DNA of 19,374 nt, taken from IMG/VR virus record IMGVR_UViG_2690316142_000006, one strand, 5' to 3'. Made by a program: the position numbers and the translations under genes. How positions within the stretch are numbered: position 1 is the first letter of the stretch; every line of letters starts with the position of its first letter. The notes below the pieces were generated by a model. It was not told the DNA's origin. It made no database searches and was given only the letters and a program-made list of their open reading frames with translations. Shown here one piece after another: positions 1 to 19,374 of this stretch. The DNA comes from a virus (taxonomy: Duplodnaviria; Heunggongvirae; Uroviricota; Caudoviricetes).

Positions 1-372
1 GAAGGAGTGTCCGTTAAACTCAGGCTACCTCAGTCTGCTGATTTGAGTCGCTACAGTGGCACGGTGGTTAACCGTCCGACGTTTTTTGCTTTTGCAAAAG
101 GCGCGGGTGTGATGGGGGAAGCGGGACCTGAAGCCATTCTGCCACTGCGTCGCGGTGCTGATGGTAAGCTGGGGGGTGTGGCGGATACTGGTGGTTCAGG
201 CATGGTGATGTTTGCCCCGCAGTACAACATTGAGATCAATAACGATGGCACGAACGGGCAGATAGGTCCGGCTGCCCTGAAGGTGGTTTATGACCTCGGG
301 AAAAAAGCGGCCGCGGACTTTATGCAACAGCAGGCCCGTGATGGTGGCCGGTTAAGTGGAGCATACCGGTAA
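1..372 (+). CDS. H: Tail tape measure protein, C-terminal end (gpH-like); gene continues upstream of the window
   Basis: Frame is open from base 1 to TAA at 370-372. The stop overlaps the ATG of the M homologue, matching lambda order H-M-L-K-I-J. Gly-rich C-terminus. Confidence 0.7.
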   Translation, partial: EGVSVKLRLPQSADLSRYSGTVVNRPTFFAFAKGAGVMGEAGPEAILPLRRGADGKLGGVADTGGSGMVMFAPQYNIEINNDGTNGQIGPAALKVVYDLGKKAAADFMQQQARDGGRLSGAYR

Positions 373-701
373 TGGAGACGTTTCACTGGAAAGTGCGCCC
401 GGATATGAATGTGGTATCAGAGCCGAAAGTGGTGACAGTGAAGCTGGGCGATGGTTATGAACAGCGTCGTGCGGCGGGACTGAATAACCAGTTGTCGACT
501 TACAGCGTGAAGATACGTGTTCGTAAAGGTGAACACCCATTTTTAAAAGCCTTTCTGGAACGGCACGGTGGCGTCCGCGCATTTCAGTGGACGCCACCTT
601 ATGACTGGAAGCCGATCAGGGTGGTTTGTCGTAAATGGTCGGCAAGCGTGGGGGCGTTGTGGGTAACCATAACGGCAGATTTTGAACAGGTCGTGGCATA
701 G
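372..701 (+). CDS. M: Minor tail protein M (lambda gpM family)
   Basis: 109-aa ORF beginning METFHWKVRPDMNVVSEPKVV, recognised as lambda gpM-like. Start overlaps the H stop and the gene sits directly before the L homologue. Confidence 0.88.
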   Translation: METFHWKVRPDMNVVSEPKVVTVKLGDGYEQRRAAGLNNQLSTYSVKIRVRKGEHPFLKAFLERHGGVRAFQWTPPYDWKPIRVVCRKWSASVGALWVTITADFEQVVA

Positions 702-710
702 GAGGCTCTG

Positions 711-1409
711 ATGCAGGATATTCCACAGGAAACACATCATGAGACGACACGCCTCACTCAGTCAGCCCAGGTGGTGCTCTGGGAAATCGATCTGACAGAG
801 GTCGGTGGTGAACGTTATTTTTTCTGTAATGAGCAGAACGAAAAAGGTGAGCCGGTTACCTGGCAGGGGCGGCAGTATCAGGCATACCCCATTCAGGGGA
901 CGGGATTTGAACTGAACGGCAAGGGCAGTGCTGCCCGTCCGACACTGACGGTTTCTAACCTGCACGGAATGGTCACCGGGATGGCGGAAGACCTGCAGAG
1001 TCTGGTCGGCGGAACGGTGGTCAGGCGTAAGGTTTACGCCCGTTTTCTGGATGCGGTGAACTTCGTCAACGGAAACAGCGACGCCGATCCGGAACAGGAG
1101 GTGATCAGCCGCTGGCGCATCGAGCAGTGCAGCGAACTGAGCGCGGTCAGTGCCTCTTTTGTGCTGGCCACACCAACGGAGACGGATGGCGCGGTTTTCC
1201 CGGGGCGTATCATGCTGGCGAATACCTGTATGTGGACTTACCGTTCTGATGAGTGTGGTTACACGGGCAGGGCAGTGGCTGACGAGTTCGACAAACCAAC
1301 GACGGATATCCGGAAGGACAAATGCAGCAAGTGTATGCGCGGGTGTGAGTTGCGCAACAATACCGGTAATTTCGGCGGTTTCCTTTCCATCAATAAACTT
1401 TCTCAGTAA
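711..1409 (+). CDS. L: Minor tail protein L (lambda gpL family)
   Basis: 232-aa ORF with Cys-rich C-terminus (CSKCMRGCELRNNTGNFGGFLSINKLSQ) typical of gpL. Lies between the M and K homologues. Confidence 0.9.
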   Translation: MQDIPQETHHETTRLTQSAQVVLWEIDLTEVGGERYFFCNEQNEKGEPVTWQGRQYQAYPIQGTGFELNGKGSAARPTLTVSNLHGMVTGMAEDLQSLVGGTVVRRKVYARFLDAVNFVNGNSDADPEQEVISRWRIEQCSELSAVSASFVLATPTETDGAVFPGRIMLANTCMWTYRSDECGYTGRAVADEFDKPTTDIRKDKCSKCMRGCELRNNTGNFGGFLSINKLSQ

Positions 1410-1413
1410 ATCC

Positions 1414-2157
1414 ATGACACAGACAGAATCAGCGATTCTGGCGCACGCCCGGCGATGTGCGCCAGCGGAGTCGTGTGGCTTCGTGGTAAGAACGCCGGAG
1501 GGAGACAGGTATCTTCCCAGCGAGAATATCTCCGGTGAGCCGGAGGAACGGTTCCGGATGGCTCCGGAGGACTGGCTGCGGGCACAAATGCAGGGTGAGA
1601 TTGTGGCGCTGGTCCACAGTCATCCCGGTGGTCTGCCCTGGCTGAGTGAGGCTGACCGGCGGCTGCAGGTGCAGAGTGATTTGCCGTGGTGGCTGGTCTG
1701 CCGGGGGGCGATTCACAAGTTCCGCTGTGTGCCGCATCTCACCGGGCGGCGCTTTGAGCACGGGGTGACGGACTGTTACACGCTGTTCCGGGATGCTTAT
1801 CATCTGGCAGGGATTGAGATGCCGGATTTTCATCGCGGGGATGACTGGTGGCGTAACGGTCAGAATCTCTATCTTGACAATATGGAGGTGACGGGTTTTT
1901 ACCGTGTCGCACTGACAGAGGCACAGCCGGGCGATGTGCTGCTGTGCTGTTTTGGTTCATCGGTGCCGAATCATGCCGCCATTTACTGTGGTGACGGCGA
2001 GCTGCTGCACCATATTCCTGAACAACTGAGCAAACGAGAGAGGTATACCGACAAATGGCAGCGACGCACACACTCCCTCTGGCGTCACCGGGCATGGCGC
2101 GCATCTGCCTTTACGGGGATTTACAACGATTTGGTCGCCGCATCGACCTTCGTGTGA
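1414..2157 (+). CDS. K: Tail assembly protein K (MPN/JAMM plus NlpC/P60 motifs)
   Basis: Start chosen at the ATG (MTQTESAILAHARRC) 4 nt after the L stop; the track ORF from 1150 is an in-frame upstream extension inside L. JAMM-like motif HSHPGGLPWLSEAD (HxHx7SxxD); Cys (DCYTLF) and His (LLHHIP) as in NlpC/P60 peptidases. Confidence 0.85.
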   Translation: MTQTESAILAHARRCAPAESCGFVVRTPEGDRYLPSENISGEPEERFRMAPEDWLRAQMQGEIVALVHSHPGGLPWLSEADRRLQVQSDLPWWLVCRGAIHKFRCVPHLTGRRFEHGVTDCYTLFRDAYHLAGIEMPDFHRGDDWWRNGQNLYLDNMEVTGFYRVALTEAQPGDVLLCCFGSSVPNHAAIYCGDGELLHHIPEQLSKRERYTDKWQRRTHSLWRHRAWRASAFTGIYNDLVAASTFV

Positions 2158-2696
2158 AAACGGGGGCTGAAGCCATCCGGGCACTGGCCACACAGCTCCC
2201 GGCGTTTCGTCAGAAACTGAGTGACGGCTGGTATCAGGTGCGCATTGCCGGGCGTGATGCAGGTGAAACCGAATTGTCTGCCCGTCTTAATGAGCCGCTG
2301 GCAAATGGTGCAGTGATCCACATAGTACCGCGTCTGGTGGGAGCTAAAAGTGGCGGTGTGTTTCAGGCGGTGCTGGGGGCGGCTGTTATGGCGGTTGCTA
2401 TATGGATGCCGGGGGTAGGAATTATGGCGAGTAATCTGCTGTTTTCTCTCGGTGCCAGTATGACGCTTGGCGGTGTTGCACAGATGCTGGCACCGAAAGC
2501 CAGAACTCCCCGTACACAGACAACGGATAACGGTAAGCAGAACACGTATTTCTCGTCACTGGATAACATGGTTGCCCAGGGCAATGTTCTGCCCGTTCTG
2601 TACGGTGAAATGCGCGTGGGGTCACGTGTGGTTTCTCAGGAGATCAGCACGGCAGACGAAGGGGATGGTGGTCAGGTTGTGGTGATTGGTCGCTGA
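2055..2696 (+). CDS. I: Tail assembly protein I (lambda gpI family)
   Basis: 213-aa ORF MAATHTLPLASPGMARICLYGDLQRF with hydrophobic Gly/Ala-rich central segment. Overlaps the 3' end of K. An alternative start at 2094 (MARICLY) is possible. Confidence 0.85.
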   Translation: MAATHTLPLASPGMARICLYGDLQRFGRRIDLRVKTGAEAIRALATQLPAFRQKLSDGWYQVRIAGRDAGETELSARLNEPLANGAVIHIVPRLVGAKSGGVFQAVLGAAVMAVAIWMPGVGIMASNLLFSLGASMTLGGVAQMLAPKARTPRTQTTDNGKQNTYFSSLDNMVAQGNVLPVLYGEMRVGSRVVSQEISTADEGDGGQVVVIGR

Positions 2697-2714
2697 TGCA
2701 AAATGTTTTATGTG

Positions 2715-2738
2715 AAACCGCCTGCGGGCGGTTTTGTC
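2715..2738 (+). terminator. Short GC hairpin plus T-run in the I-J intergenic spacer (possible weak terminator or attenuator)
   Basis: aaaccgcc-tgcg-ggcggttt followed by tg/tcgttt. GAGG Shine-Dalgarno at 2750-2753 precedes the J ATG at 2757. Confidence 0.3.
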
Positions 2739-2756
2739 GTTTATGGAGCGTGAGGA

Positions 2757-5700
2757 ATGGGTAAAGGCAGCAGTAAGGGGCATACCCCGCGCGAAGCGAA
2801 GGACAACCTGAAATCCACGCAGTTGCTGAGTGTGATTGATGCCATCAGCGAAGGGCCGGTTGACGGTCCGGTGGATGGATTAAAAAGCGTGCTGCTGAAC
2901 GGTACGCCGGTCCTGGACAGCGAGGGGAAGACAAACTTTTCCGGTGTTACGGTGGTGTTCCGTGCAGGTGAGCAGGAGCAGACACCGCCGGAGGGTTTTG
3001 AATCCTCCGGCTCCGAGACGGTGCTGGGTACGGAAGTGAAATATGACACGCCGATCACCCGGACCATCACGTCGGCAAACATCGACCGTCTGCGCCTGAC
3101 CTTCGGTGTGCAGGCACTGGTGGAAACCACCTCAAAGGGTGACCGGAATCCGTCGGAAGTCCGCCTGCTGGTTCAGATACAGCGTAACGGTGGCTGGGTG
3201 ACGGAAAAAGACATCACCATTAAGGGCAAAACCACTTCGCAGTATCTGGCCTCGGTGGTGGTGGGTAACCTGCCGCCGCGCCCGTTTAATATCCGGATGC
3301 GCAGGATGACACCGGACAGCACCACAGACCAGCTGCAGAACAAAACGCTCTGGTCGTCGTACACCGAAATCATCGATGTGAAACAGTGCTACCCGAACAC
3401 GGCGCTGGTCGGCGTGCAGGTGGATTCAGAGCAGTTCGGTAACCAGCAGGTGAGTCGCAATTATCATCTTCGCGGGCGCATTCTGCAGGTGCCGTCGAAC
3501 TATAATCCGCAGACGCGGCAATACAGCGGTATCTGGGACGGAACGCTTAAGCCAGCATACAGCAACAACATGGCCTGGTGTCTGTGGGACATGCTCACTC
3601 ATCCGCGCTACGGCATGGGGAAACGTCTTGGTGCGGCAGATGTGGACAAATGGGCGCTGTATGTCATCGGCCAGTACTGCGACCAGTCAGTGACGGACGG
3701 ATTTGGCGGCACGGAGCCGCGCATCACCTGTAACTCTTACCTGACCACACAGCGTAAGGCGTGGGATGTTCTCAGTGATTTCTGCTCGGCGATGCGCTGT
3801 ATGCCGGTATGGAACGGACAGATGCTGACGTTCGTGCAGGACCGACCGTCGGATAAGGTGTGGACCTATAACCGCAGTAATGTGGTGATGCCGGACGATG
3901 GCGCGCCGTTCCGCTACAGCTTCAGCGCCCTGAAGGACCGCCATAATGCCGTTGAGGTGAACTGGATTGACCCAGATAACGGCTGGGAGACGGCGACAGA
4001 GCTTGTGGAGGATACGCAGGCCATTGTCCGTTACGGTCGTAACGTCACGAAGATGGATGCCTTTGGCTGTACCAGCCGGGGGCAGGCACACCGAGCCGGG
4101 CTGTGGCTGATTAAAACGGAACTGCTGGAAACGCAGACCGTGGACTTCAGCGTGGGCGCAGAAGGGCTTCGCCATGTACCGGGTGATGTCATTGAAATCT
4201 GCGATGATGATTATGCCGGTATCAGCACCGGTGGTCGCGTACTGGCGGTGAACAGCCAGACCCGGACGCTGACGCTCGACCGTGAAATCACGCTGCCGTC
4301 CTCCGGTACCACGCTGATAAGCCTGGTTGACGGAAGTGGCAATCCGGTCAGCGTGGAGGTCCAGTCCGTCACCGACGGCGTGAAGGTGAAAGTGAGCCGG
4401 GTTCCTGACGGCGTTGCAGAATACAGCGTGTGGGGGCTGAAGCTGCCGACGCTGCACCAGCGATTGTTCCGCTGCGTGAGTATCCGTGAGAACGACGACG
4501 GCACGTATGCCATCACCGCCGTGCAGCATGTGCCGGAAAAAGAGGCCATCGTGGATAACGGGGCACACTTTGACGGTGACCGGCGCGGCACGGTGAATGG
4601 TGTCACGCCGCCAGCGGTGCAGCACCTGACTGCCGAAGTCACCGCAGACAGCGGGGAATATCAGGTGCTGGCGCGATGGGACACGCCGAAGGTGGTGAAG
4701 GGTGTGAGCTTCCTGCTTCGCCTGACCGTGGCAGCGGACGACGGCAGTGAGCGGCTGGTCAGCACAGCCAGGACGACGGAAACCACATACCGCTTCAGGC
4801 AGCTGGCGCTGGGGAATTACAGTCTGACAGTCCGGGCGGTAAATGCCCGGGGGCAGCAGGGCGATCCGGCGTCGGTATCGTTCCGGATTGCGGCACCGGC
4901 AGCGCCTGTCACTATTGAACTGATACCGGGGTATTTTCAGATAACGGCGGTCCCGAAACTGGCTGTATATGACCCGACGGTGCAGTTTGAGTTCTGGTTT
5001 TCGGAAAAGCGGATTGCGGATATCAGGCAGGTTGAAACCAGCGCCCGCTATCTTGGCACGGCGCTGTACTGGATAGCCGCCAGTATCAATATCAGGCCGG
5101 GCCATGATTATTATTTTTACGTTCGCAGTGTGAACACCGTTGGCAAATCGGCATTTGTGGAGGCCATCGGTCGGGCGAGCGATGATGCAGAAGGTTATCT
5201 GAATTTTTATAAAGGGTTGATCAATAAAACGCATCTCGGCAAGGAGTTGTGGACGCAGATTGATAACGGTCAGCTTGCGCCGGACCTGACTGAAATCAGG
5301 ACGTCCATTACGAATGTCAGCAATGAAATCACGCTGCCATCCTCCGGCACCACGCTGATAAGCCTGGTTGACGGGCAGGGGAATCCGGTCAGCGTGGAGG
5401 TCCAGTCCGTCACCGACGGCGTGAAGGTAAAAGTGAGCCGTGTTCCTGACGGTGTTGCTGAATACAGCGTGTGGGGGCTGAAGCTGCCGACGCTGCACCA
5501 GCGATTGTTCCGCTGCGTGAGTATCCGTGAGAACGACGACGGCACGTATGCCATCACCGCCGTGCAGCATGTGCCGGAAAAAGAAGCCATCGTGGATAAC
5601 GGGGCGCACTTTGACGGCGACCAGAGCGGCACGGTGAATGGTGTCACGCCGCCAGCGGTGCAGCACCTGACTGCCGAAGTCACCGCAGACAGCGGGGAAT

Positions 5701-7295
5701 ATCAGGTGCTGGCGCGCTGGGACACGCCGAAGGTGGTGAAGGGCGTGAGCTTCCTGCTCCGTCTGACCGTAACAGCGGATGACGGCAGTGAGCGGCTGGT
5801 CAGCACGGCCCGGACGACGGAAACCACTTACCGCTTCACACAACTGGCGCTGGGGAACTACAGGCTGACAGTCCGGGCAGTAAATGCGTGGGGGCAGCAG
5901 GGCGATCCGGCGTCGGTATCGTTCCGGATTGCCGCACCGGCAGCGCTGTCGCGGATTGAGCTGACGCCGGGCTATTTTCAGATAACCGCCACGCCGCATC
6001 TTGCGGTTTATGATCCGACGGTACAGTTTGAGTTCTGGTTCTCGGAAAAGCGGATTGCGGATATCAGGCAGGTTGAAACCACAGCACGCTATCTTGGCAC
6101 GGCGCTGTACTGGATAGCCGCCAGTATCAATATCAAACCGGGCCATGATTATTACTTTTATATCCGCAGTGTGAACACCGTTGGCAAATCGGCATTCGTG
6201 GAGGCTGTTGGTCAGCCGAGTGATGATGCATCCGGTTATCTGGATTTTTTCAAAGGCGAGATAGGGAAAACCCATCTGGCTCAGGAGCTGTGGACGCAGA
6301 TTGATAACGGTCAGCTTGCGCCTGACCTGGCTGAAATCAGGACGTCCATTACGGATGTCAGCAATGAAATCACGCAGACCGTCAATAAGAAACTGGAAGA
6401 CCAGAGTGCGGCAATTCAGCAGATACAGAAGGTTCAGGTTGATACAAATAATAACCTGAACAGCATGTGGGCTGTGAAGCTGCAGCAGATGCAGGACGGA
6501 CGCCTTTATATCGCGGGTATTGGTGCCGGTATTGAGAACACCCCTGACGGCATGCAGAGTCAGGTGCTGCTGGCGGCGGACAGGATTGCGATGGTTAATC
6601 CTGCGAATGGCAACACAAAACCGATGTTTGTTGGTCAGGGCGATCAGATATTCATGAACGACGTGTTCCTGAAACGCCTGACGGCCCCCACCATTACCAG
6701 CGGTGGAAATCCATCGGCATTTTCCCTGACTCCGGACGGAAAGCTGACCGCTAAAAATGCGGATATCAGTGGCAGTGTGAATGCGAACGCCGGGACGCTC
6801 AACAATGTCACGGTAAATGAAAACTGTACGATTAAGGGCATGCTGGAGGCGACTCAGGTCAGAGGTGACTTCGTTAAAGCTGTATCCAAATCATTTCCGA
6901 AACAGGCTGGTACGTGGGGTAACACGGAAACACCAAACGGGACGGTTACAGTCACCATAAGCGATGATCATAACTTTGACCGCCAGATTATTATTCCGCC
7001 CATTATTTTTAACGGTATAGCGTATGACGATCCGGGGAGCGGAAATAACCCAGGAGGCACGCGATACACGGGTTATGGTTTTGAAGTTCGCAAAAACGGC
7101 GTATTAATCGCATCCAGAGAAACTAAAGGTGCCATTCCCGGTAGTTACAGTGCAGTTATTGATATGCCTAGTGGTGGTGGTAGCGTCACTCTGGAGTTTA
7201 AGATTTTCCAGAAAGGCAATCAGGGGGCAGGCAATATCACCGACTGTACGGTGATTGTGACCAAAAAAGCGGCTTCCGGCATCAGTATTCGTTGA
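2757..7295 (+). CDS. J: Tail tip / central tail fibre host-specificity protein J, 1512 aa, with an internal in-frame duplication
   Basis: N-terminus [34 protein letters not shown] matches lambda J as I recall it. Conserved J motifs throughout (e.g. [21 protein letters not shown]). About 347 aa longer than a lambda-type J because of the tandem duplication at 4284-6365. Confidence 0.9.
4284..6365 (+). repeat. Tandem direct repeat inside J: two 1041-bp units (4284-5324 and 5325-6365), about 95% identical
   Basis: Both units start with gaaatcacgcTGCC and the same 10-mer gaaatcacgc recurs at 6366. Protein block from [16 protein letters not shown] to TSIT(N/D)VSNE occurs twice. Unit length is a multiple of 3. 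Confidence 0.85.
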
Positions 7296-7317
7296 AATAT
7301 TTATAACCCCAATAAAT

Positions 7318-7344
7318 GGCGTCAGGAATGACGCCTTTTTTATT
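7318..7344 (+). terminator. Rho-independent terminator downstream of J
   Basis: ggcgtca-ggaa-tgacgcc followed by ttttttatt, 23 nt after the J stop. Confidence 0.6.
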
Positions 7345-7365
7345 GCAGAAAAGCGAGAGGTAATT

Positions 7366-7842
7366 ATGCGTAAAGTTTGTGCAGCCATTTTGTCCGCAGC
7401 CATTTGCCTGGCCGTATCCGGTGCGCCTGCATGGGCGTCTGAACATCAGTCCACGCTGAGCGCGGGGTATCTTCATGCCCGGACCAACGTTCCCGGCAGT
7501 GATGATCTGAACGGGATTAACGTGAAATACCGTTATGAGTTTACGGATACGCTGGGGCTGGTGACGTCATTCAGCTATGCAGGAGACAAGAATCGCCAGC
7601 TGACCCGTTACAGCGATACCCGCTGGCATGAAGATTCCGTGCGTAACCGCTGGTTCAGCGTGATGGCGGGGCCGTCTGTGCGCGTGAATGAATGGTTCAG
7701 CGCGTATGCGATGGCGGGTGTGGCTTACAGCCGTGTGTCGACTTTTTCCGGGGATTATATCCGCGTAACTGACAATAAGGGGAAAACGCACGATGTGCTG
7801 ACCGGAAGTGATGACGGTCGCCACAGCAACACGTCTCTGGCG
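7366..7842 (+). CDS. lom: Lom family outer-membrane protein (Ail/Lom/OmpX/PagC beta-barrel family), 3'-truncated at an N/junction
   Basis: Signal peptide MRKVCAAILSAAICLAVSGAPAWA, GAGAGG RBS, aromatic-rich beta-strand pattern. The reading frame runs into N at 7843 and then into J-internal sequence. Confidence 0.75.
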
Positions 7843-7843
7843 N
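7843..7843. other. Single unresolved base (N) at a junction between lom sequence and J-internal sequence
   Basis: Literal n in the sequence. Flanks are lom ...tctctggcg on the left and J-internal gcaccggcagcgcctgtcact on the right. Confidence 0.95.
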
Positions 7844-9187
7844 GCACCGGCAGCGCCTGTCACTATTGAACTGATACCGGGGTATTTTCAGATAACGGCG
7901 GTCCCGAAACTGGCTGTATATGACCCGACGGTGCAGTTTGAGTTCTGGTTTTCGGAAAAGCGGATTGCGGATATCAGGCAGGTTGAAACCACAGCACGCT
8001 ATCTTGGCACGGCGCTGTACTGGATAGCCGCCAGTATCAATATCAGGCCGGGCCATGATTATTATTTTTACGTTCGCAGTGTGAACACCGTTGGCAAATC
8101 GGCATTTGTGGAGGCCATCGGTCGGGCGAGCGATGATGCAGAAGGTTATCTGAATTTTTATAAAGGGTTGATCAATAAAACGCATCTCGGCAAGGAGTTG
8201 TGGACGCAGATTGATAACGGTCAGCTTGCGCCGGACCTGACTGAAATCAGGACGTCCATTACGAATGTCAGCAATGAAATCACGCAAACCGTCAATAAAA
8301 AACTGGAAAATCAGAGTGCTGCAATCCAGCAGATACAGAAAGTTCAGGTTGATACAAATAATAACCTGAACAGCATGTGGGCTGTGAAGCTGCAACAGAT
8401 GAAGGACGGACGCCTTTATATTGCGGGTATCGGTGCCGGTATTGAGAATACGCCAGCAGGAATGCAGAGTCAGGTGCTGCTGGCGGCAGACAGGATTGCG
8501 ATGATTAATCCTGCGAATGGCAACACAAAGCCGATGTTTGTTGGTCAGGGCGATCAGATATTCATGAACGACGTGTTCCTGAAATGCCTGACGGCTCCGA
8601 CCATTACCAGCGGCGGTAATCCTCCGGCATTTTCCCTGACACCTGGCGGACGGCTGACGGCGAAAAATGCCGATATCAGCGGTAACGTGAACGCGAACTC
8701 CGGGACGCTCAACAACGTCACGATTAATAAGAACTGTCGGGTTCTGGGAAAATTGTCCGCGAACCAGATTGAAGGCGATCTCGTTAAAACAGTGGGCAAA
8801 CCTTTCCCACGGGACTCCCGGGCACCGGAGAGGTGGCCATCAGGGACCATTACCGTCAGGGTTTATGACGATCAGCCGTTTGATCGGCAAATTGTTATTC
8901 CCGCGGTGGCGTTTCGCGGTGCTAAACATGAGCGGAAGAATAACAATATTTATTCGTCATGCCGCCTGATAGTGAAGAAAAACGGTGCTGAAATTTATAA
9001 CCGAACGACCCTGGATAATACGCTGATATATACGGGTGTTATTGATATGCCTGCCGGTCACGGTCACATGACGCTGGAGTTTTCTGTATCGGCATGGCTG
9101 GTAAATGGCTGGTATCCCACAGCAAGTATCAGCGATTTGCTGGTTGTGGTGATGAAGAAAGCCACTGCAGGCATCACGATTAGCTGA
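7844..9187 (+). CDS. J: J protein 3' fragment (second copy, no 5' part) with a different C-terminal receptor-binding region
   Basis: Starts mid-gene at sequence equivalent to J position 4893. A mosaic of unit-1-like and unit-2-like sequence. The C-terminal ~150 aa (...[35 protein letters not shown]...[10 protein letters not shown]) differs from the copy at 6840-7295. Confidence 0.8.
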
Positions 9188-9206
9188 ATTTTATAACCCA
9201 GATACG

Positions 9207-9233
9207 GGCACCAGAAATGGTGCCTTTTTTATT
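9207..9233 (+). terminator. Rho-independent terminator downstream of the J fragment
   Basis: ggcacc-agaaat-ggtgcc followed by ttttttatt. Confidence 0.55.
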
Positions 9234-9254
9234 GCAGAAAAGCGAGAGGTAATT

Positions 9255-9854
9255 ATGCGTAAAGTTTGTGCAGCCATTTTGTCCGCAGCCATTTGCCTGG
9301 CCGTATCCGGTGCGCCTGCATGGGCGTCTGAACATCAGTCCACGCTGAGCGCCGGGTATCTTCAGACCCATACTGATATGCCAGGCAGCGATGACCTGAA
9401 GGGCATTAACGTGAAATACCGTTATGAGTTTACGGACACGCTGGGGCTGATTACGTCATTCAGTTATGCCAACGCTGAAGATGAGCAAAAAACGCATTAC
9501 AGCGATACCCGCTGGCATGAGGATTCCGTGCGTAACCGCTGGTTCAGCGTGATGGCGGGGCCGTCTGTGCGCGTGAATGAATGGTTCAGCGCGTATGCGA
9601 TGGCGGGCGTGGCTTACAGCCGTGTGTCGACCTTCTCCGGGGATTATCTCCGCGTAACTGACAACAAGGGGAAAACGCACGATGTGCTGACCGGAAGTGA
9701 TGGCGGTCGCCACAGCAACACGTCTCTGGCGTGGGGGGCTGGCGTGCAGTTTAACCCGACCGAATCCGTGGCCATTGACCTTGCTTATGAAGGTTCCGGC
9801 AGTGGTGACTGGCGCACTGACGGTTTCATCGTGGGTGTCGGTTATAAGTTCTGA
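9255..9854 (+). CDS. lom: Lom family outer-membrane protein, intact (199 aa)
   Basis: Complete ORF with signal peptide and C-terminal ...GFIVGVGYKF ending in the terminal aromatic typical of beta-barrel outer-membrane proteins. Same upstream RBS context as the other copies. Confidence 0.9.
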   Translation: MRKVCAAILSAAICLAVSGAPAWASEHQSTLSAGYLQTHTDMPGSDDLKGINVKYRYEFTDTLGLITSFSYANAEDEQKTHYSDTRWHEDSVRNRWFSVMAGPSVRVNEWFSAYAMAGVAYSRVSTFSGDYLRVTDNKGKTHDVLTGSDGGRHSNTSLAWGAGVQFNPTESVAIDLAYEGSGSGDWRTDGFIVGVGYKF

Positions 9855-9882
9855 TTAGCCAGGTAACACAGTGTTATGACTG

Positions 9883-9906
9883 CCCGCTGGTTCAGGCGGG
9901 CTTTTT
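9883..9906 (+). terminator. Rho-independent terminator downstream of lom
   Basis: gcccgc-tggttca-gcgggc followed by ttttt, immediately upstream of the stf start. Confidence 0.6.
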
Positions 9907-9917
9907 GTGGGGTGAAT

Positions 9918-10244
9918 ATGGCAGTAAAGATTTCAGGTGTACTGAAAGATGGGGCGGGTAAACCTGTCGTAAATTGTGCGATTGAACTGCGGGCCAGAAG
10001 AACCAGTCCGACCGTTGTGGCACACGTTGTTGCCACTTGCGTGACGGACAATAACGGTGCTTATGTGATTGAGGCTGAGCCGGGGTATTACGAGGTTGCG
10101 CTTCACTGTAACGGCTGGCAGCCAACCCGTGTCGGGGATATTGATGTGGCACCGACTGATGCACCGGGGACACTGAACGCGTTTCTGAATGCACCAAAGG
10201 ATGGTGATTTACGTCCGGAGGTGATGAAGTGTCAGCGCCAGTGA
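9918..10244 (+). pseudogene. stf: Side tail fibre (stf) 5' fragment, interrupted after about 109 codons by an IS21-family element
   Basis: [12 protein letters not shown]... is homologous to the N-terminus of the full stf at 14926 but a diverged allele. The ORF stops at TGA 10242-10244 where the IS terminal sequence begins. The track ORF start at 9876 lies inside the lom terminator hairpin, so 9918 is preferred. Confidence 0.75.
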
Positions 10245-10330
10245 TATAAGACGGTAATTCGCCATTTGGATTGTCCGCTCCACCCAACATGTTGTTTCCT
10301 TAAGGTTCTCACACCAGAAAGGACATCAAC

Positions 10331-12300
<1,970 letters not shown>

Positions 12301-12349
12301 CGAAAGTATTTAGCGGGCATGAAAATGGCAAATAACGGTCAAACATCGT

Positions 12350-12360
12350 NNNNNNNNNNN
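12350..12360. other. Assembly gap (11 N)
   Basis: Literal n run. Left flank is the IS21-family right end, right flank is J-internal sequence. Confidence 0.98.
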
Positions 12361-14274
12361 AATCCGGTCAGCGTGGAGGTCCAGTCCGTCACCGACGGCG
12401 TGAAGGTAAAAGTGAGCCGTGTTCCTGACGGTGTTGCTGAATACAGCGTGTGGGGGCTGAAGCTGCCGACGCTGCACCAGCGATTGTTCCGCTGCGTGAG
12501 TATCCGTGAGAACGACGACGGCACGTATGCCATCACCGCCGTGCAGCATGTGCCGGAAAAAGAAGCCATCGTGGATAACGGGGCGCACTTTGACGGCGAC
12601 CAGAGCGGCACGGTGAATGGTGTCACGCCGCCAGCGGTGCAGCACCTGACTGCCGAAGTCACCGCAGACAGCGGGGAATATCAGGTGCTGGCGCGCTGGG
12701 ACACGCCGAAGGTGGTGAAGGGCGTGAGCTTCCTGCTCCGTCTGACCGTAACAGCGGATGACGGCAGTGAGCGGCTGGTCAGCACGGCCCGGACGACGGA
12801 AACCACTTACCGCTTCACACAACTGGCGCTGGGGAACTACAGGCTGACAGTCCGGGCAGTAAATGCGTGGGGGCAGCAGGGCGATCCGGCGTCGGTATCG
12901 TTCCGGATTGCCGCACCGGCAGCGCTGTCGCGGATTGAGCTGACGCCGGGCTATTTTCAGATAACCGCCACGCCGCATCTTGCGGTTTATGATCCGACGG
13001 TACAGTTTGAGTTCTGGTTCTCGGAAAAGCGGATTGCGGATATCAGGCAGGTTGAAACCACAGCACGCTATCTTGGCACGGCGCTGTACTGGATAGCCGC
13101 CAGTATCAATATCAAACCGGGCCATGATTATTACTTTTATATCCGCAGTGTGAACACCGTTGGCAAATCGGCATTCGTGGAGGCTGTTGGTCAGCCGAGT
13201 GATGATGCATCCGGTTATCTGGATTTTTTCAAAGGCGAGATAGGGAAAACCCATCTGGCTCAGGAGCTGTGGACGCAGATTGATAACGGTCAGCTTGCGC
13301 CTGACCTGGCTGAAATCAGGACGTCCATTACGGATGTCAGCAATGAAATCACGCAGACCGTCAATAAGAAACTGGAAGACCAGAGTGCGGCAATTCAGCA
13401 GATACAGAAGGTTCAGGTTGATACAAATAATAACCTGAACAGCATGTGGGCTGTGAAGCTGCAGCAGATGCAGGACGGACGCCTTTATATCGCGGGTATT
13501 GGTGCCGGTATTGAGAACACCCCTGACGGCATGCAGAGTCAGGTGCTGCTGGCGGCGGACAGGATTGCGATGGTTAATCCTGCGAATGGCAACACAAAAC
13601 CGATGTTTGTTGGTCAGGGCGATCAGATATTCATGAACGACGTGTTCCTGAAACGCCTGACGGCCCCCACCATTACCAGCGGTGGAAATCCATCGGCATT
13701 TTCCCTGACTCCGGACGGAAAGCTGACCGCTAAAAATGCGGATATCAGTGGCAGTGTGAATGCGAACGCCGGGACGCTCAACAATGTCACGGTAAATGAA
13801 AACTGTACGATTAAGGGCATGCTGGAGGCGACTCAGGTCAGAGGTGACTTCGTTAAAGCTGTATCCAAATCATTTCCGAAACAGGCTGGTACGTGGGGTA
13901 ACACGGAAACACCAAACGGGACGGTTACAGTCACCATAAGCGATGATCATAACTTTGACCGCCAGATTATTATTCCGCCCATTATTTTTAACGGTATAGC
14001 GTATGACGATCCGGGGAGCGGAAATAACCCAGGAGGCACGCGATACACGGGTTATGGTTTTGAAGTTCGCAAAAACGGCGTATTAATCGCATCCAGAGAA
14101 ACTAAAGGTGCCATTCCCGGTAGTTACAGTGCAGTTATTGATATGCCTAGTGGTGGTGGTAGCGTCACTCTGGAGTTTAAGATTTTCCAGAAAGGCAATC
14201 AGGGGGCAGGCAATATCACCGACTGTACGGTGATTGTGACCAAAAAAGCGGCTTCCGGCATCAGTATTCGTTGA
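12361..14274 (+). CDS. J: J protein 3' fragment (third copy), identical to J 5382-7295
   Basis: Translation is identical to the C-terminal 637 aa of the full J. The track ORF 12319-14274 (MKMANNGQTSXXXX...) is an artificial fusion across the N gap. Confidence 0.8.
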
Positions 14275-14296
14275 AATATTTATAACCCCAATAAAT

Positions 14297-14323
14297 GGCG
14301 TCAGGAATGACGCCTTTTTTATT
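14297..14323 (+). terminator. Rho-independent terminator downstream of J (copy of 7318-7344)
   Basis: Same hairpin plus T-run as 7318-7344. Confidence 0.6.
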
Positions 14324-14344
14324 GCAGAAAAGCGAGAGGTAATT

Positions 14345-14827
14345 ATGCGTAAAGTTTGTGCAGCCATTTTGTCCGCAGCCATTTGCCTGGCCGTATCCGG
14401 TGCGCCTGCATGGGCGTCTGAACATCAGTCCACGCTGAGCGCGGGGTATCTTCATGCCCGGACCAACGTTCCCGGCAGTGATGATCTGAACGGGATTAAC
14501 GTGAAATACCGTTATGAGTTTACGGATACGCTGGGGCTGGTGACGTCATTCAGCTATGCAGGAGACAAGAATCGCCAGCTGACCCGTTACAGCGATACCC
14601 GCTGGCATGAAGATTCCGTGCGTAACCGCTGGTTCAGCGTGATGGCGGGGCCGTCTGTGCGCGTGAATGAATGGTTCAGCGCGTATGCGATGGCGGGTGT
14701 GGCTTACAGCCGTGTGTCGACTTTTTCCGGGGATTATATCCGCGTAACTGACAATAAGGGGAAAACGCACGATGTGCTGACCGGAAGTGATGACGGTCGC
14801 CACAGCAACACGTCTCTGGCGCACTGA
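14345..14827 (+). pseudogene. lom: lom with an 83-bp internal deletion and frameshift (premature stop)
   Basis: Aligns to lom 9255-9854 up to ...NTSLA (tctctggcg), then resumes at cactgacggtttcatcgtgggtgtcggttataaattctga. This omits the equivalent of 9732-9814; the deleted block ends in ctggcg, the same hexamer that precedes it. Confidence 0.75.
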
Positions 14828-14888
14828 CGGTTTCATCGTGGGTGTCGGTTATAAATTCTGATTAGCCAGGTAACACAGTGTTATGACA

Positions 14889-14914
14889 GCCCGCCGGTTC
14901 AGGCGGGCTTTTTT
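14889..14914 (+). terminator. Rho-independent terminator downstream of lom
   Basis: gcccgcc-ggttca-ggcgggc followed by tttttt. Confidence 0.6.
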
Positions 14915-14925
14915 GTGGGGTGAAT

Positions 14926-17900
14926 ATGGCAGTAAAGATTTCAGGTGTACTGAAAGACGGCACAGGAAAACCGGTACAGAACTGCACAATCCAGCTGAAA
15001 GCAAAACGTAACAGCACCACGGTGGTGGTGAACACGCTGGCCTCAGAAAATCCGGATGAAGCCGGGCGTTACAGCATGGACGTTGAGTACGGTCAGTACA
15101 GCGTTATTCTGTTGGTGGAAGGATTCCCGCCGTCACATGCCGGGACCATCACCGTGTATGAAGATTCCCGACCCGGTACGCTGAATGATTTTCTCGGTGC
15201 CATGACGGAGGATGATGCCCGTCCGGAGGCACTGCGCCGTTTTGAGCTGATGGTGGAAGAGGTGGCGCGTAACGCGTCCGCGGTGGCACAGAACACGGCA
15301 GCCGCGAAGAAATCAGCCAGCGATGCCAGCACATCAGCCCGTGAGGCGGCAACCCATGCGACTGATGCTGCAGATTCAGCACGTGCAGCCAGCACGTCAG
15401 CCGGACAGGCCGCTTCGTCGGCTCAGTCAGCGTCTTCCAGCGCAGGAACGGCATCAACAAAGGCCACTGAAGCCTCAAAAAGTGCTGCCGCTGCAGAGTC
15501 CTCAAAAAGCGCGGCGGCTACCAGTGCCGGTGCGGCGAAAACGTTAGAAACGAATGCGGCAGCGTCACAACAATCAGCAGCCACTTCTGCATCCACCGCG
15601 ACCACGAAAGCGTCAGAAGCTGCCACCTCAGCCCGGGATGCGTCGGCTTCAAAAGAGGCGGCAAAATCATCAGAAACGAACGCATCATCAAGCGCCAGTA
15701 GCGCAGCTTCCTCGGCGACGGCGGCTGCAAATTCTGCGAAGGCGGCCAAAACGTCCGAGACGAACGCCAGGTCTTCTGAAACGGCAGCGGGACAGAGTGC
15801 CTCAGCTGCGGCAGGCTCAAAAACAGCGGCTGCGTCGTCTGCCAGCGCCGCGTCAACAAGTGCCGGGCAGGCCTCAGCCAGTGCCACCGCCGCCGGAAAA
15901 TCGGCAGAAAGCGCCGCATCATCCGCTTCAACAGCCACAACGAAGGCTGGCGAAGCCACTGAGCAGGCCACGGCAGCAGCGAGGTCAGCTTCCGCAGCGA
16001 AGACATCCGAAACGAACGCGAAAGCGTCGGAAACCCGTGCAGAATCCTCAAAAACGGCTGCCGCATCGTCCGCCAGTTCGGCGGCGTCATCGGCATCATC
16101 GGCGTCTGCTTCAAAAGATGAGGCGACCAGACAGGCGTCAGCAGCGAAGGGCAGCGCCACGACGGCATCCACGAAGGCGACAGAGGCTGCTGGTAGTGCG
16201 ACGGCAGCAGCTCAGAGCAAAAGTACGGCGGAATCTGCAGCAACGCGCGCTGAGACAGCGGCAAAACGGGCAGAGGATATTGCATCCGCCGTGGCGCTTG
16301 AGGATGCGAGCACGACGAAAAAGGGGATAGTACAGCTCAGTAGTGCGACTAACAGCACTTCCGAGTCACTGGCGGCAACACCAAAAGCCGTTAAGGCCGC
16401 GTATGACCTGGCTAACGGGAAATACACCGCACAGGATGCAACGACAGCACAGAAAGGGATAATCCAGCTAAGCAGCGCGACCAACAGCACGTCTGAAACG
16501 CTGGCGGCAACGCCAAAGGCAGTAAAAGCAGCCAATGACAATGCTGAGAAACGTCTGCAGAAAGATCAGAACGGTGCGGATATCCCTGGCAAAGACACCT
16601 TTACGAAAAATATTGGTGCCTGCCGTGCCTTCGGTGGGTCAGTAAGCACAACAACAGGAAACTGGACGACTGCACAGTTTATCGAGTGGCTGGATTCTCA
16701 GGGAGCATTTAACCATCCATACTGGATGTGCAAGGGTTCCTGGTCTTATGGCAATAATAAAATCATTACTGATACTGGCTGCGGTAATATTCATCTCGCC
16801 GGAGCTGTCATTGAAGTAATGGGGATAAAGTCAGCGATGACGATCCGCATTACCACTCCGACCACATCCAGCGGTGGCGGAACAACCAACGCCCAGTTTA
16901 CCTATATTAATCACGGAACAGATTATTCACCTGGCTGGCGAAGGGACTATAACTCCAGAAATAAGCCAACGGCATCAGAGATCGGGGCGCTACCGTCAGG
17001 TGGAACAGCAGTATCATCAGTTAATCTGGCTTCAAAAGGTCGGGTAGCCGCGCTGACAGACAATACGCAGGGGGCAGCAGGTCTTGAGTTATACGAGGTG
17101 TATAACAACGGATATCCAACAGCGTATGGAAATATCATTCACCTGAAAGGGATGACAGCCGTTGGCGAAGGTGAGTTACTCATCGGCTGGAGTGGTACAA
17201 GCGGTGCTCATGCTCCGGCATTTATTCGTTCACGACGGGATACGACCGACGCAAACTGGTCGCCGTGGGCGCAGCTTTACACCTCGGCTCATCCTCCTGC
17301 AGAGTTTTATCCAGTCGGTGCACCAATCCCGTGGCCATCAGATACCGTTCCGTCTGGTTATGCCCTGATGCAGGGGCAGACTTTTGACAAATCTGCTTAC
17401 CCGAAACTTGCAGCCGCTTATCCGTCAGGCGTGATCCCTGATATGCGTGGCTGGACGATTAAGGGCAAGCCCGCCAGTGGTCGTGCCGTATTGTCTCAGG
17501 AACAGGATGGCATTAAATCGCACACCCACAGCGCCAGCGCATCCAGTACGGATTTGGGGACGAAAACCACATCGTCGTTTGATTACGGCACTAAATCCAC
17601 GAATAACACCGGGGCGCATACGCACAGTCTGAGCGGCTCTACAAGTTCAGCTGGGGCCCACCAACATAGTCAGACTGGGCCCAGAACGAATAGCGGGAGT
17701 CAACCTACTGGAATGTTTCCGGCAGGGAGTACTCAAGTTAGCGGGACTAATCAGGTTGGTATCAGTGGCTCATTAACCAGTGGCACCTCCCAATGGGTAG
17801 GTAAATCATCTTCAGAAGGAAACCATACACACTCACTGTCCGGCACAGCAGCATCTGCGGGTGCACACGCGCATACTGTCGGTATTGGTGCTCATACGCA

Positions 17901-18009
17901 CTCTGTTGCGATTGGTTCACATGGACACACCATCACCGTTAACGCTGCTGGTAACGCGGAAAACACCGTCAAAAACATCGCATTTAACTATATTGTGAGG
18001 CTCGCATAA
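14926..18009 (+). CDS. stf: Side tail fibre protein Stf (about 1027 aa) with a T4 gp37-like His-rich tip
   Basis: N-terminus [60 protein letters not shown] matches lambda Stf as I recall it. Long Ala/Ser/Thr-rich low-complexity shaft; two copies of KGI(V/I)[11 protein letters not shown](S/T)[11 protein letters not shown]; seven HxH motifs near the C-terminus. True start is ATG 14926; the track ORF starts at GTG 14920. Confidence 0.9.
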
Positions 18010-18590
18010 TGGCATTCAGAATGAGTGAACAAGCACGGACCATAAAAATTTATAACCTGCTGGCCGGAACTAATGAATTTATTGGTGAAGGTGACGCATA
18101 TATTCCGCCTCATACAGGTCTGCCTGCAAACAGTACCGATATTGCACCGCCAGATATTCCGGCTGGTTTCGTGGCTGTTTTCAACAGTGATGAGTCATCG
18201 TGGCATCTCGTTGAAGATCATCGGGGTAAAACGGTTTATGACGTGGCTTCCGGCGACGCGTTATTTATTTCTGAACTCGGCTCATTACCGGAAAATGTCA
18301 CCTGGTTATCCCCGGAAGGGGAGTTTCAGAAGTGGAACGGCACAGCCTGGGTGAAGGATACGGAAGCAGAAAAACTGTTCCGGATCCGGGAGGCGGAAGA
18401 AACAAAAAACAGCCTGATGCAGGTAGCCAGTGAGCATATAGCGCCGCTTCAGGATGCTGTGGATCTGGAGATCGCAACGGAGAAAGAAACCTTGTTGCTG
18501 GAAGCTTGGAAAAAGTATCGGGTGTTGCTGAACCGTGTTGATACATCAACTGCACCGGATATTGAATGGCCAGTAGCACCTATAGGGTAA
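18009..18590 (+). CDS. tfa: Tail fibre assembly protein Tfa (lambda Tfa family), 193 aa
   Basis: [54 protein letters not shown]... is near-identical to lambda Tfa as I recall it. Start overlaps the stf stop (taATGg). Confidence 0.9.
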
Positions 18591-18599
18591 ATTCGTAAT

Positions 18600-19339
18600 G
18601 ATTACCTAAATACGTTATTCTTTTGTTAAAAAAGTGATTTTGCTATAGGTAGGGAGTATGTTCTTGGATTAAGAATAAAAAATCGCCATGAAAGAGCTTC
18701 ATGGCGAGTACATAAACGTACAAAATGTGATGAAAGTAGAGTGGCGTAAGCCACTATATTAAGATATGACAATAGCGAAGAAAAGTAAATAACATTTTAT
18801 GGACGTTTAATTGTTAATTATAAAAACTAGAGTGCCCGATATTGTTTATCTTGCTTTAAAATAATGTACTCAAACCAAATTTTTGAGCTAAAAGCTCAAA
18901 TAATATAAATGCAATAATAATGTTTAATAAGACAATTAGCTTGCTTTGTATTTTCATTTCGGAATACTGTTAAGTAACTTTGATGACCCTAACAATAGAT
19001 CGGAATTTTCTTAGAGTCAATGGTCACTGTTTTTGCTTGCAAAGCAAATGTTTTGGTGGTTATAAGTCGTCTTAATATAGTCACGCATGCAACTTGTTCC
19101 ATGCGGAGATTAAAGATTGGAATATAACGCGAAGATGGAATTAAATTACATTTGCAATAATTAATTTATTATTACTCAATAATTACCGATATTATTATTG
19201 TAAATTAATCATTAGAATGCAAAAAGAAATGTAACGGCAAAATAAGAGGACGATAGCTGAGAAAAAAGCGTGCTTTCCCAATCTGGGGCAAATCACGTCT
19301 GAATGACACCTGAAAACAGGTGGTAGCCTCAAGAAGGCT
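18600..19339. other. AT-rich (about 30% GC) non-coding region between tfa and IS1
   Basis: No ORF of 60 aa or more on either strand. All three minus-strand frames carry frequent stops (tta/cta/tca triplets checked through 18716-18970). Several short palindromes. Base composition differs sharply from the ~50-55% GC tail genes. Confidence 0.7.
18671..18706 (-). terminator. Hairpin with a T-run on the minus strand (possible terminator for leftward transcription)
   Basis: cgccatgaa-agagc-ttcatggcg (9-bp stem); the flanking plus-strand aagaataaaaaat reads as a T-run on the minus strand. Confidence 0.4.
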
Positions 19340-19374
19340 GGTGATGCTGCCAACTTACTGATTTAGTGTATGAT
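19340..19374 (+). mobile_element. IS1 terminal inverted repeat and first 35 bp (element continues beyond the window)
   Basis: ggtgatgctgccaacttactgatttagtgtatgat matches the start of IS1 as I remember it. Confidence 0.8.

Follow-up and report, generated by a model that had tools for sequence, protein, structure and literature searches.

The tail-tip region of phage lambda is arranged in the order H-M-L-K-I-J-lom-stf-tfa. Neighbouring alternative alleles for fibres or receptor binding are known from the invertase switches of Mu (Gin/G segment), P1 (Cin) and e14 (Pin). A row of similar tail genes in a draft sequence can also be compared with the products of assembly itself; indeed, the authors of the Sanger pipeline describe SSPACE and GapFiller as greedy, with false joins being possible, and put the number of contigs in an S. 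sonnei assembly at about 405 (PMC5320598).

Here we analyse a stretch of viral DNA of 19,374 bp (hereinafter the window) in which three J-lom-stf modules follow one another. Our comparison with finished chromosomes indicates, with little room for doubt, that this row is an assembly artefact interleaving two lambdoid prophages, each possessing one J-lom-stf set, and that no tandem array exists.

Materials and Methods

The window is the entire draft scaffold CXBN01000105.1 (assembly GCA_001251235.1), built from short reads and containing gap Ns. CXBN01 corresponds to S. sonnei ShIB2013 (PMC5447701, Table 1), a strain belonging to the Holt 2012 Illumina collection. The genomes used for comparison are finished genomes of the same clonal species, not that of ShIB2013 itself, and the tie to the species through a paper concerns only CP019689.1 (S. 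sonnei 75/02). Searches restricted to E. coli gave best matches of 96-99% and did not settle the arrangement, which was resolved through an exact-protein look-up in finished chromosomes. The finished loci are named L005 (prophage A), L009 (prophage B) and L008 (S. sonnei 75/02). The supplement of the paper on the pipeline (PMC5320598) was searched for the scaffold accession without success, and a literature search on the assembly pipeline returned nothing.

Results

Read from left to right, the window encodes H', M, L, K, I, J, an Ail/Lom fragment, a J C-terminal fragment, lom and the N-terminus of stf, followed by istA and istB of an IS21 element, a further J fragment, a lom of 160 aa, a stf of 1029 aa and tfa. 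The Pfam scan and the finished loci agree in assigning these genes to a lambdoid tail tip, with the gpJ domain series (FNIII-A, Phage-tail_3, Ig_J, Ig_J_second, Phage_Tail_Tip and Ig_GpJ_C), Ail/Lom, a Stf with phage_tail_N and a Caudo_TAP Tfa. N runs are present at 7843 (one N) and 12350-12360 (11 Ns), and the scaffold is composed, in this order, of segments A1 (1-5334), B1 (5335-7842), A2 (7844-12349, after the single N) and B2 (12361-19374, after the 11 Ns). The features are the following:

1-32, no strand: 32 nt that close a multi-copy IS3-family (IS600-like) element and with which the scaffold begins on the left; the same 32 nt terminate IS copies in L005 (e.g., 12636-12667)
7-2696, plus strand: prophage A tail genes H' (C-terminal remnant), M (372-701), L (711-1409), K (1414-2157) and I (2094-2696), from Pfam, the L005 match and gene spacing
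2757-5334, plus strand: prophage A J, codons 1-859 (segment A1); the finished J_A differs at two aa of this part
5324-5334, no strand: 11-nt microhomology TGAAATCACGC, at which J_A is falsely joined, with no N, to a point of J_B lying 1041 bp further back in the gene (self-comparison; finished J of 1159 and 1165 aa)
5335-7842, plus strand: segment B1, J_B codons 513-1165 and the beginning of lomΔ83, redundant duplicate of the stretch from the 12314-equivalent to 14821, 100% to L009
7843, no strand: gap of one N, at which prophage B lom is followed by the middle of prophage A J
7844-9187, plus strand: prophage A J, 3' part (segment A2), true continuation of 2757-5334 (99.3% overlap, L005 match, J_A rebuild)
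9255-9854, plus strand: prophage A lom, full length, 199 aa (Pfam Ail_Lom 1-199/199); the exact protein adjoins the 1159-aa J in finished chromosomes
9876-10229, plus strand: prophage A stf, N-terminal remnant interrupted by IS21 (Pfam phage_tail_N); the match to finished loci runs on into IS21
10230-12349, plus strand: IS21-family element, istA 10331-11503 and istB 11500-12300, stopping 10 nt before the IS end (ends set against a complete copy)
12350-12360, no strand: gap of 11 Ns, at which IS21 is followed by the middle of prophage B J
12361-14274, plus strand: prophage B J, 3' part, start of segment B2, 100.000% to L009
14345-14827, plus strand: prophage B lom with an 83-bp frameshifting deletion, 160 aa; junction 14821/14822 on the CTGGCG repeat at 14816-14821
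14920-18590, plus strand: prophage B stf (14920-18009) and tfa (18009-18590), with Pfam phage_tail_N, Phage_fiber_2, Collar and Caudo_TAP, and present in finished loci
19340-19374, no strand: start of an IS1 copy (35 nt), with which the scaffold stops on the right; the window ends in GGTGATGCTGCCAACTTACTGATTTAGTGTATGAT and finished loci run on into IS1 (InsA/DDE_Tnp_IS1 genes)

This gene content is the one reported by an earlier note on the same DNA, made from the sequence alone. The note had also pointed to an exact copy shared by 5382-7842 and 12361-14821, and the two indeed align over 2461 bp with 0 mismatches; copy 1 has an N on its right and copy 2 has an N on its left. The divergent alleles that it described in the middle module were likewise recovered, with identities of 88.6% for the J C-terminus, 88.4% for lom and 93.8% for the start of stf.

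The finished chromosomes resolve these pieces into two loci. In CP023645.1 two gene sets lie at 1,268,951-1,289,532 and 1,949,502-1,970,101, about 0.66 Mb apart, with a single J in each. The layout of prophage A is IS-H'-M-L-K-I-J(1159 aa)-lom(199 aa)-stf'::IS21, and that of prophage B is H-M-L-K-I-J(1165 aa)-lomΔ83(160 aa)-stf-tfa-IS1. Segments joined in the scaffold are placed by the finished genomes at different loci, with identities of 99.8-100%. Positions 1-5334 match L005 3698-9031 (99.79%, gap-free) and 7840-10657 match L005 8587-11403 (99.8%); on the other side, 5324-7842 match L009 4295-6813 at 100% and 12361-19374 match L009 4353-11366 at 100.000% over 7014 bp, gap-free. The joined segments are, moreover, redundant or overlapping: B1 is contained within B2, A1 and A2 share about 442-445 bp, and the breakpoints fall at an N, at a repeat boundary or at a microhomology. 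The suspicion, raised in the earlier note, of collapsed and mis-scaffolded repeats deriving from two lambdoid prophages is thus confirmed by the mapping to finished loci. The statement that each break coincides with an N or an IS holds for 7843 and 12350-12360 but fails for a fourth breakpoint, the join at 5334/5335, which carries no N and only the 11-nt microhomology, and which had escaped notice; the overlap of 4893-5334 with 7844-8285 (99.3%) had been missed as well.

The N-free join generates a chimeric J of 1512 aa, in which aa 1-859 of J_A are fused to aa 513-1165 of J_B and the Ig_J and Ig_J_second domains are duplicated. A J of this length is on record from CXBN01000105.1 only, the finished S. 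sonnei J genes encoding 1159 and 1165 aa, and a probe spanning 5334/5335 matched none of 5,426 finished E. coli genomes. This join bears directly on the reconstruction favoured in the earlier note, in which 1-7842 and 14822-19374 would form one prophage, with 12361-14821 being its collapsed copy and 7844-12349 coming from a second one. Two prophages are indeed involved, and the identity between 5382-7842 and 12361-14821 would let 1-7842 run into 14822-19374. However, such a prophage would need the 1512-aa J, with an internal duplication of 347 aa, against the 1159 and 1165 aa of the finished proteins, and a junction that is absent from finished genomes. Furthermore, 1-5334 is 99.8% identical to prophage A and the spacing of M, L, K, I and J in the window fits prophage A and not prophage B, in which the stretch preceding J_B shares only about 89% identity with 1-5334. 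Finally, joining 2757-5334 to 8286-9187 restores an intact J of 1159 aa, with 0 internal stops and two aa differences from the finished J_A. The assignment of 12361-19374 as the continuation of 1-7842 is therefore wrong: 1-5334 goes with the middle module to L005 (99.8%, with an overlap of about 445 bp), and only 5335-7842 belongs with 12361-19374 (L009, 100%). We consider that reconstruction very unlikely.

The interleaving of two prophages also left a mark on the consensus. All the substitutions that distinguish A1 and A2 from finished prophage A (16 of 16) carry the prophage B base, as is expected of collapsed paralogs. A third J-bearing prophage was considered as the source of the three mismatches between 4893-5334 and 7844-8285 and was rejected; the bases are the prophage B allele and form a 5-bp cluster flanked by runs of 40 and 49 nt common to both alleles.

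As for lom, the first copy stops, as the earlier note had seen, at the very base where the third lom lacks 83 bp, and a 6-nt CTGGCG direct repeat is found there. The note had taken this point as a possible assembly branch, but the junction is gap-free in five finished chromosomes, which encode the identical 160-aa Lom; the same observation overturned the idea that 14821/14822 might represent a further false join. Many finished E. coli genomes match the deletion flanks at 100%, all of them with the 83 bp, and a probe on the deletion junction gave 0 matches in the 5,426 finished E. coli genomes. The 83-bp deletion is a genuine allele, seen here in S. sonnei-type loci only.

The IS21 element of the window is 100% identical to a multi-copy IS21. 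In five finished genomes, the copy located at prophage A is truncated, with nested IS3-family elements at the equivalents of 10657 and 11327 and no istB end. Since the istB end is missing at the true locus, the intact IS21 right end of the scaffold derives most likely from other copies, and the IS21 sequence beyond about 10657 is probably their collapsed consensus. Downstream of IS21, the expected target duplication GAAG and the remaining part of stf were looked for and are not present. That the 11-N gap, which approximates the 10 nt missing from the IS21 end, might reflect a true adjacency between the IS and J was examined and judged unlikely, as the copy at the true locus lacks the right part.

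A partly real rearrangement might be envisaged at this point, in which an IS21-mediated event in ShIB2013 set the 3' half of J_B beside the IS21 lying in prophage A stf, the other joins being artefacts. The size of the gap would suit it, and IS-mediated rearrangements are frequent in Shigella genomes. On the other hand, the IS21 copy at the true locus is broken in the five finished genomes, and J_B runs intact through 5381/5382 at every finished locus, as it does in the scaffold's own copy 1 (5335-5381), which makes this event highly improbable. We attach an equally slight probability to a hybrid, partly duplicated tail region in ShIB2013, peculiar to this isolate, formed through IS21 or recombination and placing part of the prophage B J-lom-stf-tfa beside the disrupted prophage A stf.

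Discussion

All segments of the window map to finished prophage loci, the A pieces overlap, the consensus is chimeric and IS sequence stands at both scaffold ends, which lie 32 nt inside the IS3-family element and 35 nt inside IS1, while A2 stops 10 nt before the end of the multi-copy IS21. Mis-scaffolding explains this scenario: contigs of two separate prophages were chained through tail genes about 90% similar and through multi-copy IS elements. A1 and A2 are overlapping pieces of prophage A interrupted by B1, which redundantly repeats the initial 2.5 kb of B2, the latter being the 3' half of prophage B. A pipeline of the Velvet/SSPACE/GapFiller type is the likely route of these joins, the software step responsible for each of them being what we infer.

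The chance that J-lom-stf cassettes for alternative host ranges really stand in tandem in ShIB2013 is negligible. The deposited scaffold order and the existence of an IS-bounded tail-block tandem duplication of different structure in finished S. sonnei 75/02 speak for it, and the following observations against it: J copies 2 and 3 are 5'-truncated, begin exactly at N gaps and lack start codons, one "cassette" duplicates another without a single base change, all copies are direct with no invertase or recombinase besides the IS21 istAB, all breakpoints are Ns, ISs or microhomologies, the pieces lie about 0.66 Mb apart in the finished genomes examined, and the consensus is blended between paralogs.

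From a biological viewpoint, the window thus contains two ordinary decaying lambdoid prophages of S. sonnei and no novelty. In practice, the scaffold illustrates clearly how a draft assembly may give rise to gene arrays and proteins that do not exist: public protein collections already include its 1512-aa chimeric J and its shortened J and Lom fragments, and the 16 paralog-derived pseudo-SNPs could pass for recombination or gene conversion.

Compared with the lambda tail-tip region, both prophages exhibit the same gene order and the canonical Pfam domains (gpJ, Ail/Lom, Stf N-terminus and Tfa), and they differ from it by a decay that is typical for Shigella, with the 83-bp frameshifting deletion in the lom of prophage B; in prophage A, an IS cuts H short, and IS21 with nested IS copies breaks up stf. 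The likeness to the Mu, P1 and e14 switches is only superficial. The window contains no invertase ORF, tail genes and istAB being the only genes found, self-BLAST revealed direct repeats only, with no inverted crossover sites, and the supposed alternatives are truncated gene fragments.

In S. sonnei 75/02 (CP019689.1, L008), the prophage A tail block is tandemly duplicated and IS-bounded, so that genuine tail modules in tandem can occur in the species, albeit in another structure. The genes are the same prophage A ones (H'-M-L-K-I-J-lom-stf'), head to tail, in whole blocks 99.98% identical, with a period of 9417 bp and direct IS3-family copies at the borders, as in an IS-mediated tandem duplication; the window, in contrast, interleaves fragments of two prophages with Ns, and its 2461-bp duplicate is flanked by an N, the 11-N gap, the microhomology join and a real deletion point.

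The closest counterpart is the artefact shown by short-read drafts of bacterial genomes in which repeats collapse and paired ends mis-scaffold the contigs, as with Velvet, SSPACE and GapFiller (Page et al. 2016, PMC5320598). The window shares with it the breakpoints at Ns, IS ends and short microhomologies, the base-perfect duplicate abutting gaps, the paralog-blended consensus, the ends lying about k-1 nt into IS copies and the conflict with finished genomes of the clone, and no essential difference separates the two.

Gene Content and Provenance of the Window

The gene content that the earlier note had read from the sequence was upheld by Pfam, and the runs of Ns lie where it had placed them (a single N at 7843 and 11 Ns at 12350-12360).

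Gene content of the window (Pfam)
First part of the window: M, L, K, I, then a gpJ-type protein
7366-7869: Ail/Lom fragment of 167 aa, translated through the N
Middle module: J C-terminal fragment, full 199-aa Lom, 122-aa Stf N-terminus
After the middle-module Stf N-terminus: IS21 istA/istB
Last part of the window, after the IS21: J fragment, 160-aa Lom, 1029-aa Stf, Tfa

According to an exact-protein look-up, the window is the entire draft record CXBN01000105.1 (19,374 bp) of assembly GCA_001251235.1; in a published list (PMC5447701), CXBN01 is assigned to strain ShIB2013 of Shigella sonnei, which comes from the Holt et al. 2012 collection. The finished E. coli genomes answered the question of the arrangement only partly; in ipaH-positive E. 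coli, the middle module was matched at 99% by one M-L-K-I-J(3480 bp)-lom-stf locus of ordinary type. The decisive step was the look-up of the window's exact proteins in long contigs. The finished 4.8-Mb chromosome CP023645.1 harbors two separate loci about 0.66 Mb apart, here called prophage A (locus L005) and prophage B (locus L009).

Loci in CP023645.1 and BLAST matches of the window
1,949,502-1,970,101: L005, prophage A, IS3-family-H'-M-L-K-I-J(1159 aa)-Lom(199 aa)-stf'-IS
1,268,951-1,289,532: L009, prophage B, H-M-L-K-I-J(1165 aa)-lom-stf(1027 aa)-tfa, then IS1
Window 1-5334: L005 3698-9031, 99.79%, no gaps
Window 5324-7842: L009 4295-6813, 100%
Window 7840-10657: L005 8587-11403, 99.79%
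Window 12361-19374: L009 4353-11366, 100.000%, 7014 bp, no gaps

The segments 1-5334 and 7840-10657 overlap by 445 bp on prophage A, and the same picture was obtained in four more finished chromosomes of each type. Naming the pieces after their prophage, the scaffold order is A1 (1-5334) joined directly to B1 (5335-7842), then the N, A2 (7844-12349), the 11 Ns and B2 (12361-19374). On these sequence comparisons, the arrangement is almost certainly an assembly artefact, as had been suspected; the pairing of segments proposed at that time did not hold, in that 1-5334 belongs with the middle module and not with 5335-7842.

The segments 5382-7842 and 12361-14821 are indeed identical base for base (2461 bp); the first copy ends on its right at the single N (7843) and the second begins directly after the 11-N run. 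The first base of the block is also that of a 47-nt run common to the J genes of the two prophages (J_A and J_B), and its last base is also that of a 28-nt run common to both lom alleles. The different alleles noticed in the middle module were recovered by self-BLAST, with identities to the outer ones of 88.6% (J C-terminus), 88.4% (lom) and 93.8% (stf start). The stf of prophage B also contains a weak (77%) internal direct repeat (16321-16407 and 16453-16539), which coincides with Pfam Phage_fiber_2 repeats and is ordinary fibre repeat structure.

False Join and Chimeric J

Two further similarities had escaped the first reading. The segment 4283-5334 shares 91% identity with 5324-6375 (self-BLAST), which appears as an in-frame 1041-bp internal "tandem duplication" of J, giving an ORF of 1512 aa with Ig_J and Ig_J_second each present twice. 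The join at 5334|5335 carries no N and is located on the 11-nt microhomology TGAAATCACGC; a probe across it had no match among 5,426 finished E. coli genomes. The deposited 1512-aa J consists of J_A residues 1-859 followed by J_B residues 513-1165, and its sole recorded source is CXBN01000105.1 (exact-protein look-up). Furthermore, 4893-5334 and 7844-8285 are 99.3% identical, so that the first J piece shares its end with the beginning of the middle module, and joining 2757-5334 to 8286-9187 yields an intact 1159-aa J, 2 aa off the finished one. The record calls as genes the chimeric J (2757-7295), two truncated J fragments (7811-9187 and 12319-14274) and the Lom fragment running through the N (7366-7869); the chimera and these fragments have entered public protein collections, where they pass for genuine proteins.

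Probable Blending of the Two Prophages

All the substitutions relative to finished prophage A (11/11 in A1 and 5/5 in A2) carry the prophage B base.

Sites with the prophage B base (16)
1989, 2000, 2046, 3506, 4027, 4043, 4456, 4463, 4464, 4625, 4631, 7992, 7993, 7996, 9293, 9296

The three mismatches in the A1/A2 overlap are all such sites, and they fall in a 5-bp cluster between 40- and 49-nt runs common to both alleles. Since only about 11% of sites distinguish prophage A from prophage B, this agreement of all 16 sites is not due to chance, and it indicates a blended consensus. Real gene conversion is a less likely source of the prophage B bases in the A pieces; these 16 pseudo-SNPs would mimic it, or recombination, in comparative analyses of the ShIB2013 draft genome.

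The lom Deletion

The third lom lacks, as had been stated, 83 bp from the exact base at which the first lom copy stops; the first block copy stops there because the two lom alleles diverge at that point. The deletion (window 14816-14827, in the lom of prophage B; L009 6337-6819) sits on a 6-nt CTGGCG direct repeat. A probe across the junction (14821|14822) had no match among the 5,426 finished E. coli genomes, and all those with 100% identical flanks keep the 83 bp. A false join was ruled out here, the junction being gap-free in five finished chromosomes that encode an identical 160-aa Lom. The deletion in prophage B is real and shifts the reading frame; with it, a prophage gene for an outer-membrane protein has become a pseudogene, a change specific to the lineage.

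IS Elements and Scaffold Ends

At its left end the scaffold holds 32 nt of an IS3-family element and at its right end 35 nt of an IS1, and A2 stops 10 nt before the end of its IS21, which is 100% identical to copies numbering five to nine per replicon in related strains. Neither the expected 4-bp target duplication (GAAG) nor the remaining stf was found after the IS21 in the window. At the true locus of the finished genomes, the IS21 in stf is interrupted by two nested IS3-family elements (about 1.27 kb, IS600-like), at positions equivalent to 10657 and 11327 (window 10230-12349 versus L005 11404-14517), and lacks its right part (istB end); for this reason, the seamless IS21 of the scaffold is probably a consensus from other copies. 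The IS21 is intact in the scaffold whereas that of the finished genomes carries nested elements, and therefore at least one more collapsed-repeat path is hidden.

Discussion

An overlap of about 10-15 nt is enough for GapFiller and SSPACE to merge neighbouring contigs, and the 11-nt join at 5334|5335 would be in keeping with this. The Sanger high-throughput pipeline consists of Velvet, SSPACE and 120 iterations of GapFiller; its authors reported that these greedy steps may produce false joins and gave an average of 405 contigs for their 299 S. sonnei assemblies (PMC5320598). A pipeline of this type is the likely source of the joins of the scaffold, an attribution that we infer only, since CXBN01000105.1 was not found in the supplement of that paper.

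Two observations concern related genomes. In the finished genome of S. sonnei 75/02, of the same lineage (L008 1983-20600; CP019689.1 4626665-4647264, reversed), the tail block of prophage A (IS-H'-M-L-K-I-J-lom-stf'-IS21') is duplicated head-to-tail in its entirety; the copies (L008 1983-11183 and 11400-20600) are 99.98% identical, with a period of 9417 bp and direct IS3-family copies at the boundaries. The tandem duplication may be real and IS-mediated, or it may be an artefact of long-read assembly. In the ipaH-positive E. coli O121 201805972 (L002 24241-25992; CP119441.1), the T3SS effector gene ipaHd lies directly downstream of the tail fibre genes in the prophage that most resembles prophage A (99% over J-lom-stf). 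The annotation gives the J of this E. coli prophage as a pseudogene, with a stop inside it.

Nothing supports an array of host-range cassettes in the window: the additional copies of J lack their 5' part and begin at gaps, every copy is in direct orientation, no invertase was found in the window, and one "cassette" duplicates another without a mismatch. The arrangement holds no novelty, and the underlying biology is that of two standard, decaying lambdoid tail-tip regions.
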